A DNA stretch of 64,000 nucleotides from Escherichia coli (GTDB lineage Bacteria > Pseudomonadota > Gammaproteobacteria > Enterobacterales > Enterobacteriaceae). The stretch is taken from assembly GCF_017348835.2 (NCBI RefSeq), contig NZ_CP071375.1. One strand, given 5' to 3'. Shown here piece after piece: positions 54,201-60,200 of the stretch; the first letter of the stretch is position 1, and each line of letters begins with the position of its first letter. A program made the position numbers.

Positions 54201-57200
54201 ATTATAATTAATCATTTCATATTCTTTCTTAAACTGTGGTTTGTAATATCCTGTCAGAAATGAAAAAAGCCAGAAATATGCCACAAAAGCAATCATCACA
54301 ATCTCAAAAAAATGTTTTTTATAAATGGCTTATCATAGAAGCATGATACCGATAAAAATCGCCCATAAGATCTTATCGAAATTGTAACCGCCAGCGCAAT
54401 CGCTGCTGACAGTAGCAAAAGAGGTACCTGAATCTTCTGTCTCAATATAGAAAACTCAATAATTGCCGGCACAAACAATAATTCCACAGCAAAATAAAGG
54501 CGAAATACATTTAGCTCTTGCATAGAATGTTTTCTTTTCACTGCGAAAAAGAATACAACACCAATACCCCAACCGATAAGAAATATAGCAATGACGATAA
54601 CTGCAAAAAATAAACTTCTGGCAACATCATCAACACCTGCACCTACAATCCACCATGGGAAGCCGTAGTAAAAAGAAGTACCCCATCCATAGAAATAAGC
54701 ACTCCCCCATCCAAGGCATCCCATGTAGGCAATAAAAAGTGAAGAACTCCTGAGCAGCGCACCATCCTGCATAACCACCCCAATACAAGATGATAACATT
54801 GGCTTACAACTCATAACAAAAGCAATTCAATGCCGTCAAGAGGTTACAGGCTAAAAAAACTCTATTACATTGCAGTCAGCATGTTTACTACACAAATACA
54901 ATTCAGAGCATAAAAACTACTCGGCGGCAGGTTATTGAGACTCATCAATGACATGTAAAAAACGCCCATTATTGGTGTCAAGTTTCCCCAAAGTTATTCA
55001 AAAAGTCAATATTATGCCGTTAATATGTTGCCATCCGTGGCAATCATGGCGCTAACGTGTGATCGCATTCAAAATGTTGTCTGCGATTGACTCTTCCTTG
55101 TGGCATTGCACAACCAGAGCGTCATACAGCGGCTTAACAGTGCGTGACCAGGTGGGTTGGGTAAGGTTTGGGATTAGCATCGTCACAGCGCGATATGCGG
55201 CGCTTGCTGGCATTCTTGAATAACCGACGCCTTTACATCTTCCGCACTCTTTCTCAGCAACTATCCCCCACTGCTCTGTTTTGGCTATATCAACCGCACG
55301 GCCTGTACCGTGGCAATCTCTGCATCTTGCGCCCGGCGTAGCGGCACTACGGCAATAATCCGCATAAGCGAATGTTGCGAGCACTTGCAGTACCTTTGCC
55401 TTAGTATTTCCTTCGAGCTTTGCCACACCACGGTATTTCCCCGATACCTTGTGTGCAAATTGCATCAGATAGTTGATAGCCTTTTGTTTGTCGTTCTGGC
55501 TGAGTTCATGCTTACCGCAGAATGCAGCCATTCCGAATCCGGCTTGTGATTGCGCCATCCCCATAGCAGCCATCACATCAGTACCAGAAAGAGAGTCAGA
55601 AGCCGTAGCCCGTGGTGAGTCGCTCATCATCGGGCTTTTTGGCGAATGAAATTTAGCTACGCTTTCGAGTCTCATGCGCCTTCTCCCTGTACCTGAATCA
55701 ATGTGAGGTTTCCGCAGAACACTGCGCCAGTATCGATATACATCTGGTTGGCAAATTTGAGTGGTTTCACTGCTGGCGTATGACCAAAGATGAACGTGTC
55801 CGCGCCTTTGATTTCTTTCACGATCCCGTCTTGTGAGTTGCTGATTCGTTCGCGGTTCCAGATTACCTGCTGATGATCAACTGGCTTTCCAAACTCGTAT
55901 TTATCACAAGGATAATCGGCGTGGCAGATGACATATTTTTTTCCTTTACTCACCAGTTCGATGATTAACGGAAGTTCATCTGCTTTATGGGCAAGAGCTT
56001 TAGCCAGAATTTCTTTGTCGTAATCGAGATTAAAGAACCAGCCACCGCCATTAAGCAGCCAGTGATTGACGTTTCCACGCTCTGATAAGCCATCAATCAT
56101 CATTTGCTCATGGTTTCCACGTACAGCTCTGAACCAGGGGAATGTGATTAATTCCAGGCATTCTACGTTCTCTGTACCGCGATCAACCAAATCGCCCACC
56201 GAGATAAGCAGGTCTTTTTTGGTGTCGAATCCTATCGTCTCCAGTTTTTTCATCAGGTTCGTGTAGCATCCGTGCAGATCGCCAACTACCCAAATATTTC
56301 GGTATTTGCTGCCATCAATTCTTTCGTAGATATTCATGCAACCTCACTTCTGCTGTTTCGCAGTTTTTTAAGTTTCTGTTGATACTCCGCCTTGATGGCC
56401 CTGCACTCTTCGACAGTCCAGCGATAGCGGTTATGGTTTGATTCGATTTCCTCTACTGCTTCCTGCCCGATGCGGCTAATCAGTTCGACGCGATACGGAA
56501 CGAGATTTCCGCTTTTGTGCTGGTTGCACACCACGCATTGCTTGTGAATATTGCGTTCATCAAATCGGAGTTGAGGTGCCGCAGCAGTTGTCCGGTAATG
56601 TCCGGCATCCCACTGAGCAGACGTGAGCGTTCCGCACGAGATACATGGTAAGTCGCGGTCTCTTTCTCTGATGAAGGCGTTTACGGCTTGTTGGGCTTGT
56701 TTAATCCAGTAACTGCGGGGCTTTAAGGCGAGTTTTTGAATCTTAAGTTTATCTTTCTGTTTCTGCTCCTCTCGTCGTCGTTTCTTCTCTGCTGCTTTTT
56801 CCGCTTTTTCGCGTTCTTTACTTCGTCGTTCGAGTGCTATCTTGGTTCCACAAATCTCATTACACAAATATTGATTTTGATATTTTGGTATAAACCATTC
56901 ATTGCAACATTTACATTTCCTTCGATAGATTCGCATAAGTGCTCCTTTCGTTGCCGGAAAAATCACCGTAATACTTATCTCGGGCTTCTTCAGCAACTAG
57001 TACCGCTAACTCCAGATCATCAAAGCATCCGAAGTGTTTACTCTTTCCATGGAATCCTAGCCTAACATTCCATTTTTTCTGTCGTTTGTGCCAAGTAACC
57101 CCTCTGCAACCTGATTTGCTATTCTTTCGGATCCTTATATTTCTTGAATTTTCTATTGGCAGGCATTCTCTTAAATTTTCTGGCCTATTGTCGGTCCTAA

Positions 57201-60200
57201 TTCCATTAACGTGGTCAATTTGACCAGCAGGCCAACGATTATGAGTTATGTAAAAAACTAAGACGTGAGTTTTATATCTACGCCCATCTATCATGATCAT
57301 TGAATAACCGTTGGAATCAAAAGTTCCAGCAACACTATTTAATGCTATCCTTCCCTGAGTGGGAACTTTCCATCTAAATACCCCGGTAGATTTATCGAAA
57401 CTTAGTAACTCAAATATCCTTTTAACAGTTAAATCTTCTCTTTTACGGTTACATCGTCTTCGCGCTGGTTTAGCCATCGCCTTCTTCCTCCGTAATGGTT
57501 TTCTGAATTTGGCCACCTGAACAGAGCTCACCAAAGCTATGGATGTCGGTATTTCCACAATACCAAGATGGCGAAAATAACTGCATGATAAGCCTCAGGG
57601 AAAAGGGAAGACACTACCCCCGATAATTCAGAAACAAATCGAAATACATGAACTAAAGAAAAAATCACAACAAATAGAAATAGAAACAGAAATAGAAATA
57701 GAAATAGAAATAGAAATAGAAATAGAAATAGAAATAGAAATATTAAAACAGACCACCACATTCCTGATGTCATACTCACTAAACAATTTTTCGACAACAT
57801 GGTAGCTCATAGCATGTTATCGTGTAGACACCCTCTGCTACGTATTCGGTGTTCAGTGCAATATCTACAAATACTGGAAAAATCTAAAATCGAGGCAAGT
57901 TTTTAGTGATAACTATAGTTAGACTATATTGACGACCTGATGTGCTGTATGTAATAATTAACAAAAAATATTTTCCATGGGATTTTTTTATTTTAATGAA
58001 ATGCAAAATATTTTTATCAATAGTTAGTATTATGGAAAACCATTAATTCAGGAGGAAACTTGATTCCAAATTCAACTTCAAATAAAGGTTATGTATGCAT
58101 TGACATGCAGTGTTCGTCAACCTCTGAACCAACAGCTTCTACCTCCAGCAACCGGAGTATTAAATTAGCCGCTTCCACAAATGTATATCCGATAACAAGA
58201 AACGACTCCGAGCTCACTCTGAACGATTTTCTTGATAATAGCTCTTCTACGTCATCATTGGACTACATTAATGAATTGGGCTCTCAACTGACGTTAAATG
58301 ATTTTCTTGACAACATAAAGACAAATGAGGTGGATGGAACATGTACGGATGTGGTAATTAATATCCCACAAGAGATACAAACAAATACACAGGAAAATGA
58401 TTTGTTATTATCCGATAAAAATAATTCAATATGCATTGAAATCGATGAAAGAATTACAAAAATCCTAACATGCAAGCAAAAATATCAACTGGACAGCATC
58501 ATTCATGAAATTATACCAAAAGAGAATGAGAGTGCAGAAACTGTTCTCCATCTTATGAGAGTTCTGAACGATCAATATCATCAGGTATATAATCAGTCAG
58601 GATGTTTTTATAAAGCCTATATGGCCATACACAATAAAATCGAACAGATACTTCCATATGCGTTCAGAGCCGGAGGCGGAATCAGCATTCACTTGCTCAT
58701 ACAGGCATTATTTTTTAATGGCGACTATAACAAATCACCTTCACAGTCTCAACAACCATCTTTATATACATCACCTTCTCCAACAATAAATACAGAAGCA
58801 TTCTTAAGTAATGTATTATCACTAGATATAACCCAGGTACGCATACTTGGTGATTTACTATCAGCAACTTTATTTCATGCACCAACAATATTCTATCAAT
58901 ATCCTAAACTAATAGATGAAGTTAAGTATTGTATAAGTAATAAAAAAATAACAGGTTCGGTTATAGCACGATTTACTCTATGTTTAACAAGTACATTACT
59001 AACCATGTCACCACTGTTAATGCTTAATGGAGCAGTTAAAACAGGTAGCATAGTAAGAACTATAGGTAGGGGAGTGAGTTATGCTGATATACCATTGGCC
59101 TTAGCTATATTAGGTGACTCATGGTATAAAGCTTATAAACATGGTTCTTCTGATAACCCAAATTCTGCTCAGAGATTTATATCGCAAGAAGCGGCCTTTA
59201 AAACCACCCAGCGGGTATTAACACAAGGATTAAGTCTGATGTCCTCTTTATCGGGAGCAATCATGCGCTCTCTTGAGAAAGGCACACCACCACAAATGAT
59301 GTCTTTATTCATCGTAAACATACTAAATCTATTATTTCATCAAAATCCATATGAAGGGGCATCAGCAAGTGCTAATGCTTTGAAAAGATCAACTTACTCC
59401 CATAATCCGGACATACTAAATACTCAGGCAATAGCTCTTTGTGTTGACCTCCAGCATACAAAAAATATAACCATGCCACTTTTCAAAACAAAAGACAGGA
59501 TATCTTACGCATTCAATGGACAAAGAACATCCCCAGAAGACCAAAAACAAATACTGAAAGAAGTTATAAACTCCTGTACCCAAGGAGAAAGAGCCATTTT
59601 AAATACATCACAATCAGAAACATGCAAACATAAAATCGATGAGATTTATGAAAAAAGATTCTCAGAAACAGAACTAAATACATTACCAAACGAAATGAAA
59701 AATTTCTTGATATTTTTGAACAAAACTCATGAAAAAGATATTTCGCGTTTAAGCATGGGTAACGAAGTTAATGAAAAAATAATTGCAGTTATAGTCAAGA
59801 CGTTAGCATATAGAGAGTCTATGTTGTGTTAGACTTTAACTCTATATTGATATAACATTAGCCAAATATTCAACAGTGTATGCGACCAAACACCAACATG
59901 TCGCATACATATACAATTTGAATATTTAATTATATTTACTTAATGTATTTCTATAAAAGCAAATTACAAACTCACAACAAAAAACCTCATAACACATTAA
60001 CAATCAATTCTTTTCATCTTTATAAATTCTCATATCAGGCTTGCACCCGATAAACCGACGAAAACTATTTAAAACCCATCGAGTGAAGTAATCTCTAAAA
60101 CCAAAGAAATACCAAGTGAAAATATTCACGATAAAATGCCCGGTCAAAGCCCCTCCTGTACCGCATGCAAGAACAGTAAAAAATCAGATGTTTTCATAAA

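Follow-up and report, generated by a model that had tools for sequence, protein, structure and literature searches.

We describe a 64,000-nucleotide (nt) stretch of the Escherichia coli contig NZ_CP071375.1, hereafter the window, in whose positions all coordinates are given, and within it a 188-residue open reading frame (ORF) of predicted endonuclease function that immediately precedes the lambdoid prophage gene ninG (also called rap). The nin-region genes at 55-61 kb all lie on the minus strand and follow the lambdoid order. Read along that strand, ninE is followed by a stub of ninF, an AT-rich block of 2.8 kb, the 188-residue ORF, ninG, the gene for the NinI phosphatase and Q. The parts that bear most directly on the relationship between the ORF and ninG are these:

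57491-57449, minus strand: relic of the ninF-3'/ninG-5' junction, containing a Shine-Dalgarno sequence, an ATG, ninG codons 1-9 and two further nucleotides
57491-57484, minus strand: Shine-Dalgarno sequence GGAGGAAG of that relic, with the ATG at 57477-57475
57477-56911, minus strand: predicted endonuclease ORF, 188 residues, beginning MAKPARRRC, with its stop codon at 56913-56911
57448-56937, minus strand: endonuclease-specific DNA, 512 nt, 38.9% GC, with boundaries placed by blastn and no counterpart in endonuclease-free ninG alleles
56947-56942, minus strand: replacement Shine-Dalgarno sequence of ninG, AAGGAG, within the 3' end of the endonuclease DNA
56936-56853, minus strand: alternative ninG 5' end, here called X5', 84 nt, listed as an ATG plus 28 codons, 27.4% GC
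56936-56334, minus strand: chimeric ninG (rap) ORF, 200 residues, composed of X5' and a lambda-type body (56852-56334), with its stop codon at 56336-56334

Comparison with endonuclease-free alleles of ninG defines the edges of the insertion closely. On the left, the 42 nt at 57490-57449, which represent the 3' end of ninF and nt 1-29 of ninG, are 93-98% identical to the ninF/ninG junctions of HK630, E. coli 100117 and E. coli 2009C-3554. On the right, 56852-56334 corresponds to ninG nt 94-612 and is 96.5-99% identical to endonuclease-free alleles. Between these matching stretches 64 nt of ninG (nt 30-93) have been exchanged for 596 nt, consisting of the 512 nt of endonuclease-specific DNA and the 84 nt of X5', a unit referred to below as the cassette. 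The best comparator for the empty site is a ninE-ninF-ninG-ninI remnant in E. coli 2009C-3554 (locus L008): it agrees with the window at 99% identity over ninG from nt 94 onwards and over ninI, and its endonuclease-free ninG allele is 97.7% identical to the window over the body of the gene. As judged from these alignments the pattern is not due to chance, and they support the placing of the endonuclease gene inside ninG, relative to alleles without it. An insertion had been proposed in a first-pass annotation of this DNA, made from the window by itself; set against the ninG of insert-free prophages it is readily discerned, as the replacement of 64 nt by 596, and many related prophages are without it.

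The left edge of the insertion lies within the endonuclease reading frame. The first nine codons of the ORF, encoding MAKPARRRC, are exactly the first nine of lambda-type NinG. The first-pass annotation had taken this to be how the lambda protein starts. It is indeed the N-terminus of NinG in two E. coli prophages, in Salmonella phage BTP1 and in HK630, whose NinG is annotated as lambda-like. The Shine-Dalgarno sequence GGAGGAAG is 6 nt upstream of the endonuclease ATG, and no further in-frame start is found between codon 1 and the conserved endonuclease core. The endonuclease therefore depends on the start of ninG, and would be translated where ninG once was. The comparison thus shows a predicted gene fused in frame to the Shine-Dalgarno sequence, ATG and first nine codons of ninG, that is, a case of start capture.

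A sceptical view of the same stretch would be that the ORF is a decaying remnant that is dead though still open, or an artefact of annotation, and that MAKPARRRC is residual ninG sequence with no use in translation. The prophage in the window does appear defective, the starts assigned by RefSeq and by the Prokaryotic Genome Annotation Pipeline (PGAP) disagree (201 and 188 residues, respectively), and the frame can be extended upstream to a GTG at 57558. Against this, all but one of 18 loci, drawn from two genera, keep the 188-residue frame, synonymous changes are in excess, and the Shine-Dalgarno sequence stands 6 nt ahead of the ATG. Moreover, ninF lies upstream in Salmonella, so that the ATG at the ninG position is the only start common to all copies. 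The remnant or artefact explanation is, in our estimation, scarcely credible.

The product of the ORF is recognisable by several methods. Pfam searches match the 188-residue sequence to HNH_3 (PF13392) at residues 68-107 with an E-value of 9.1e-11 and to AP2 at residues 123-171 with an E-value of 9.6e-4, which is borderline for a single sequence; the match to PHROG_99, 'HNH endonuclease', has an E-value of 1.4e-71. In an alignment of 13 sequences, residues D88, H89, N97, R98, N101, L102, R103 and N110 are invariant in the family and N91, D96 and N113 nearly so. All are present here, and the catalytic and metal-binding motif DH...DNR..NLR...N is intact. A sequence profile of the family picks up I-HmuI (PDB 1u3e) with its N-terminal half (E = 1.7e-7), this being the only solved HNH enzyme so retrieved, and plant AP2/ERF domains with its C-terminal half (E = 2.2e-9 for the WRI1 AP2 structure).

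Modelling gives a similar picture. The AlphaFold model has a mean predicted local distance difference test score (pLDDT) of 84.9; confidence is low at residues 1-10 and 179-188 and nowhere else, and the AP2 region is modelled as three strands and a helix with pLDDT of ~89-97. Its top Foldseek matches are 1u3e (probability 1.00), which aligns by fold at ~16% sequence identity, and AP2 domains. Profile and model together support the assignment of the ORF as a gene of homing-endonuclease type, encoding a predicted I-HmuI-like HNH_3 nuclease followed by a C-terminal AP2 DNA-binding domain. The first-pass description of homing-endonuclease-like sequence with an AP2-type domain was therefore apt, agreeing with the Pfam HNH_3 and AP2 matches, with PHROG_99 and with the I-HmuI profile and fold matches. 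Assignment to the terminase-associated HNH proteins of the HK97 gp74 type was considered and rejected, that family having another Pfam model and another genomic location.

The two ends of the protein differ from its core. In the 13-member alignment, family N-termini consist of the initial methionine and only 2-8 residues ahead of the motif L..LL.Y...TG.FRW, while most tblastn hits among other phage endonucleases align only from residue 12-16 onwards, two of the listed alignments beginning at residues 2 and 5. Because family N-termini are short, because tblastn alignments start where they do and because pLDDT is low at both ends, the endonuclease proper is placed at residues ~12-178, with the first nine and last ten residues foreign to it:

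Residues 1-9: derived from ninG
Residues ~12-178: core of HNH_3 and AP2 domains
Residues ~179-188: read-through into the ninG 5' end, in another frame

No group I or group II intron, nor any other Rfam family, is detected in 56000-58100 at E <= 1. For this reason, and because ninG has its own Shine-Dalgarno sequence and ATG, repeats codons 1-9 and is read in a different frame, with its first 26 nt overlapping the 3' end of the endonuclease ORF, the endonuclease gene is taken to be free-standing. The first-pass annotation had pointed out a downstream NinG-like gene with a different N-terminus and an overlapping start, and the overlap of 26 nt confirms this. Its broader claim, that a free-standing endonuclease invaded ninG and took its start, is likewise upheld by the DNA boundaries against endonuclease-free alleles, by the in-frame fusion and by the want of an intron.

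The start lost by ninG has been made good by X5', which carries a diverged second version of ninG codons 1-9 and is joined to the resident ninG body at about nt 94. In a global alignment, X5' shows only scattered matches and several gaps against nt 1-93 of HK630 ninG, compared with ~97% identity over the rest of the gene. Its GC content of 27.4% contrasts with 51.6% for the lambda segment that it replaces; the values for the ninG body and the endonuclease DNA are 48.7% and 38.9%. X5' is a complete, very AT-rich alternative 5' end of ninG that accompanies the endonuclease, and not a start evolved anew on the spot.

One check proposed in the first-pass annotation gave a negative result: there is no duplicated target site at the insertion edges. 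There is at the edges a 14-nt imperfect repeat, CGAAGACGATGTAA and CGAAGGAAATGTAA, made up of the truncated resident copy and the imported copy of ninG codons 6-10. It is not a target-site duplication, because the two members are simply two versions of the same codons. Separately, the left junction coincides exactly with an imperfect tandem repeat of 20 nt (57419-57459; AGACGATGTAACCGTAAAAG / AGAAGATTTAACTGTTAAAAG, 80% match), the first half of which is lambda-type ninG sequence. This could be a trace of the formation of the junction or a chance feature of AT-rich DNA; on a rough estimate it is not clearly beyond chance.

The searches also show that a full-length NinG with the N-terminal cysteine pattern is still encoded. 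The 200-residue ORF matches the Pfam family NinG (PF05766) with an E-value of 1.3e-82 over positions 5-192 of the 193 in the model, and PHROG_171 with an E-value of 5e-116. Cysteines occupy positions 8, 10, 11, 25 and 29 of the chimeric protein as against 9, 14, 28 and 32 in the lambda type. Residue 24 (window 56866) is variable, being Leu (TTG) in the window and in strain 2013C-4991 and Trp (TGG) in AU6Stx1, in an O157:H7 strain, in CP032808, in the aligned Salmonella loci and in the metagenomic locus L010 described below; the aligned residue of lambda-type NinG is Trp too.

The cassette is widespread. It is present at an identity of at least 99% in 537 of 5,426 complete E. coli genomes, the listed carriers including O157:H7, O26 and O111 strains, and also in the Shiga toxin 1 (Stx1) phages AU6Stx1 and SH2026Stx1, where the genes are annotated 'HNH endonuclease' and 'NinG'. 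Its surroundings in E. coli vary, both downstream (ninI-Q207, ninH-Q144 or ninI-Q162) and upstream (the 2.8-kb block or, in O157:H7, insertion sequence (IS) remnants). Carriers in Salmonella were reached by searching with full-length NinG and then scoring the N-termini, and here the N-terminus of the window's NinG is found on NinG bodies 88-93% identical in protein. All 13 of the Salmonella loci fetched, from P22-like prophages, have an intact ninF, a 188-residue endonuclease and a 200-residue ninG product, and in them the start of the endonuclease overlaps the end of ninF, as the start of ninG normally does.

Divergence is very unevenly distributed across these loci. The window and the Salmonella copies differ at 3-7 of the 512 nt of endonuclease DNA and at 1 of the 84 nt of X5', against 77-88 of the 519 nt of the ninG body. 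Over 17 loci, pairwise diversity is 0-0.014 across 57479-56880 and 0.05-0.25 downstream, in the ninG body, and within Salmonella the diversity of ninF is 0.07-0.09 beyond ~50 nt upstream. At least five ninG bodies, mutually 82-95% identical, carry the cassette. All the copies examined, from E. coli and Salmonella alike, share one pair of junctions, and many lambdoid phages and prophages have the site uninterrupted. The cassette is considered mobile, a property for which the first-pass annotation had no evidence, because it is near-identical in E. coli and Salmonella prophages whose ninG bodies have diverged. A near-identical element of ~0.6 kb, in a diversity trough of ~0.7 kb with diverged flanks and at one site, is what we read as the population signature of homing with short co-conversion tracts.

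Of 18 loci, 17 have the ORF itself intact and one has it interrupted by an IS. Its 15 polymorphisms comprise nine synonymous and six conservative nonsynonymous changes, giving, in what is a rough test, a ratio of nonsynonymous to synonymous polymorphism (pN/pS) of ~0.18 with a binomial P of 0.0012. IS elements are found at two places in the cassette, one of the IS3 family in the endonuclease ORF and an IS2 in the alternative 5' end of ninG. Two apparent variants were rejected as such: a truncated 104-residue endonuclease (P0003) is the result of the IS3-family insertion (locus L007, 2826-4039, in E. coli CP032808), and H52, seemingly without the end of the alternative 5' end, reflects the IS2 insertion (locus L009, 3699-4927, in E. 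coli Z1323CEC0011).

Much of this distribution could also be that of a passive mosaic joint, in which the module entered through one illegitimate recombination and then spread by descent and ordinary homologous exchange, the endonuclease being inactive or irrelevant. That all copies have a single junction pair would suit such a history, as would the strong mosaicism of lambdoid phages, whose contexts downstream of ninG vary widely, the finding of cassette-bearing and cassette-free ninG in one genome and the defective look of the window's prophage. The low-diversity tract of ~700 nt is, however, centred on the cassette, with diversity rising to both sides, and recombination blind to the endonuclease would have no reason to be so centred. 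Nor would passive spread lead one to expect an ORF kept intact in 17 of 18 loci at a pN/pS of 0.18, an intact catalytic motif or the insertion, in other prophages, of a second endonuclease of the same family 90 bp away. We regard the passive mosaic as an unlikely explanation, although one that retains some weight.

The conservation of the ORF might alternatively mean that the nuclease has been domesticated and serves the phage or its host, by excluding or degrading lambdoid rivals that have a lambda-type ninG 5' end or by aiding recombination through NinG/Rap. Homing endonucleases of the T-even phages cause marker exclusion, which offers a precedent, and the proposal accords with purifying selection on the ORF, with its placement in an early operon behind an inherited, efficient translation start and with its wide retention in prophages of enterohaemorrhagic E. 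coli (EHEC) and Salmonella. On the other hand, PADLOC and NCBIfam models give no match for the endonuclease, IS-disrupted copies are tolerated, and the pattern of presence and absence, the replacement of the target and the spread of identical cassettes are already predicted by a selfish element with no added function. Domestication therefore seems very improbable.

As regards the origin of X5', a 41-residue query with its N-terminus returned only fragments of the same allele, and no other NinG in the phage collection has it. The NinG search with N-terminus scoring gave the Salmonella carriers and a single endonuclease-free relative (P0025), encoded on a metagenomic phage contig (L010; Logan SRR13494434) whose arrangement is repeated in loci L011 and L012. 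The next most similar N-termini, those of P0077 and P0078, have no endonuclease upstream and are much more distant. In L010, ninG has an X5'-type 5' end, no endonuclease upstream and a body that shares only ~78% identity with the other bodies. Over its first 84 nt the gene matches X5' at 90.5% identity and has 28.6% GC, and since this AT-rich 5' end is set on a gene of 51% GC, X5' is a discrete foreign module in L010 too. Over nt 1-93, the L010 5' end is 55% identical to that of the endonuclease-free, lambda-type L008. Upstream of the L010 ninG is an unrelated 74-residue gene which ends in the same ATGTAA inside ninG codons 8-9. Either the X5' of L010 was left behind by an earlier invasion after loss of the endonuclease, or L010 represents a lineage related to the source.

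Taking the evidence as a whole, we consider it quite probable that the locus holds a free-standing homing-endonuclease cassette of lambdoid phages, lodged after codon 9 of ninG. The endonuclease would be made from the delayed-early transcript on prophage induction or phage infection. Its substrate would be lambda-type ninG without an endonuclease, nicked or cut within the 64 nt that the cassette has overwritten or close to them. The cassette-bearing genome would then serve as template for repair, passing on the cassette together with short flanks, and the recoded 5' end would render carriers immune to the enzyme. The preference of AP2 domains for GC-rich sites, noted in PMC10448857, fits the change from 52% to 27% GC but proves nothing. 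The left junction would go back to a single illegitimate in-frame join, kept for the translation start with which it provides the endonuclease.

A number of considerations weigh against this reading. Cleavage and its target site are matters that we infer for a putative homing enzyme. All copies trace to one junction pair and hence to a single origin, and later spread could have occurred by ordinary homologous recombination between lambdoid phages rather than through endonuclease-induced breaks. The pN/pS test is rough in that it involves only 15 sites, which are phylogenetically non-independent. Neither tblastn against 50,697 phage records nor a search of a 5.8-billion-protein set revealed a donor for the endonuclease, these searches giving only its own cluster (at least 99% identity) and relatives at 47% identity or less. 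The phage collection contains no endonuclease-free counterpart more than 91% identical to the Salmonella ninG bodies, the best being ~90%, and the ends of the co-conversion tracts cannot be exactly placed because such a close counterpart is wanting. Finally, the cassette and an endonuclease-free, lambda-type ninG coexist in the same O157 genome; since the endonuclease-free allele that was checked sits in a defective prophage, their coexistence neither supports nor refutes activity.

Elements of this kind are known, and this one is here cleanly resolved. I-HmuI, the nicking enzyme of Bacillus phage SPO1 (PDB 1u3e), has the catalytic DH...N...N motif in common with the ninG endonuclease. It is, however, encoded in a group I intron and its C-terminal domain is a helix-turn-helix, whereas the ninG endonuclease has no intron and AP2 as its predicted DNA-binding domain. 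At T4 mobA/gene 60, the endonuclease is accompanied by additional sequence that leaves the host gene in usable form and breaks up the target. The T4 host gene is split into two polypeptides or bypassed, while ninG receives a whole new 5' end and start and donates a nine-codon stub to the endonuclease. A further T4 parallel is mobE (PMC2790892), likewise a free-standing HNH endonuclease gene in or beside a conserved gene and mobilised with flanking DNA.

The HNH-AP2 proteins are a recognised family of homing endonucleases from phages, cyanobacteria and protists (PMC10448857, its reference 45), of which the 'IPA-HNH' genes of vibriophage ICP1 form a divergent branch (PMC10448857). Like other members, the ninG endonuclease combines an N-terminal HNH with a C-terminal AP2 domain, is free-standing, is variably present in or next to a conserved phage gene and occurs as near-identical copies with diverged flanks. 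It differs from the ICP1 genes in matching the canonical Pfam HNH_3, which they do not (PMC10448857), and in setting: it belongs to the non-essential nin region of temperate lambdoid and P22-like prophages rather than to the neighbourhood of replication or structural genes in lytic phages. In gene 31 of the P22-like Salmonella phage epsilon34, the N-terminus of a resident gene is fused in frame to an HNH endonuclease (PMC2629481). A start has thus been captured in the same way, and the phage group is the same too, but gene 31 is in the early left operon, its endonuclease lineage is related to enzymes of Lactobacillus phages and no replacement 5' end is reported for it (PMC2629481). Our literature searches found no description of the ninG insertion itself, the genes of which are routinely annotated.

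Other endonucleases have settled close by. The ninF of E. coli 100117 (NZ_CM128596.1) has a clean insertion at about codon 36, 53 bp upstream of the start of an intact lambda-type ninG. It holds a second HNH-AP2 endonuclease of PHROG_99, 37% identical to the one in ninG, and is present in 30 of the 5,426 genomes. The same prophage has a third endonuclease upstream of ninB. Judging by these placements, the ninF-ninG site is an endonuclease-prone hotspot. The second and third endonucleases, both in E. coli 100117, are at:

L005 1768-2310
L005 386-997

A 375-residue ORF directly after ninG in L010 (4604-5731) begins with ~165 residues of HNH_3 endonuclease with an AP2-like region and continues in frame into a DUF1133/Q-like antiterminator; here too an endonuclease may have become joined to the beginning of a nin/Q-region gene. 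In several of the cassette-bearing Salmonella P22-like prophages, an endonuclease gene of a different make-up, with NUMOD4 and HNH_3, lies between Q and the holin gene:

L013 5908-6429
L016 6683-7201
L021 6240-6758
L022 5940-6458
L024 6240-6758

The remaining features around the cassette in the window are as follows:

60339-60291, minus strand: what is left of ninF ahead of the 2.8-kb block, a stub of its first 49 nt
60290-57491: AT-rich block of 2.8 kb, 34% GC, taking the place of ninF from nt 50 onwards and ending just short of the ninG Shine-Dalgarno sequence, with boundaries placed against L005 and L008
58060-59832, plus strand: 590-residue ORF inside the block, antisense to the nin operon, PHROG_9230 (function unknown)
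56337-55672, minus strand: NinI phosphatase
55675-55052, minus strand: Q

The ninG stop codon overlaps the start of ninI (ATGA). At the far side of the block, window 60526-60291, comprising ninE and the start of ninF, aligns to L008 1336-1571 and L005 1475-1710. The 590-residue ORF has no Pfam, NCBIfam or PADLOC match and looks like an added accessory gene, or 'moron'. Between it and the endonuclease is an array of the hexanucleotide AAATAG/GAAATA (11.8 copies, 57672-57742), with gaps at 57675-57705 relative to AU6Stx1, to an O157:H7 strain and to 2013C-4991; since its copy number differs between strains, the array behaves as a variable-number tandem repeat.

The Salmonella cassette-bearing loci, in which ninF is intact, do not have the 2.8-kb block, and the cassette is for that reason independent of it, the two representing separate events. 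A chimeric query for the block joined to endonuclease-free ninG found no instance in the 5,426 complete E. coli genomes, and the order of the block and cassette events is not readable from E. coli alone. Downstream of Q (~50500-55100), with annotation taken from the 100%-identical strain PE164, there are no apparent lysis or head genes, and within ~2 kb the sequence passes into genes for Lom/Ail, tail fibre and the effector NleG, together with an IS element. None of the few prophage loci compared gave a match to the first ~50 kb of the window. The host prophage in the window is probably defective and its ninF was separately replaced, so that this particular copy of the cassette is probably a passenger.

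Most work on homing endonucleases has dealt with lytic phages, among them T4, T5, SPO1 and ICP1. The present case comes from temperate lambdoid and P22-like prophages, including those of Shiga-toxin phages, and concerns ~10% of complete E. coli genomes. A more ambitious reading, which we find possible but rather doubtful, is that the cassette is a self-contained homing unit that replaces the 5' ends of genes, with X5' as a portable immunity determinant, a target recoded so as to escape AP2/HNH recognition, that is able to outlive the endonuclease, as in L010. Conversion driven by the endonuclease would then repeatedly have overwritten the N-terminal cysteine motif of NinG in E. coli and Salmonella prophages. 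If so, lambdoid prophages that share a host could also use it as a weapon against one another when induced.

While the ninG cassette changes no general principle, it indicates that an element of this type can take the translation start of its host gene while giving that gene a new one, and can impose a foreign N-terminus on the recombination enzyme Rap/NinG. For annotation, it means that the 'HNH endonuclease' upstream of ninG in EHEC genomes would be better viewed as a selfish insert than as a member of the nin operon. For the phages, the cassette points to a short hotspot of recombination where ninF meets ninG, one that contributes to prophage mosaicism between E. coli and Salmonella.

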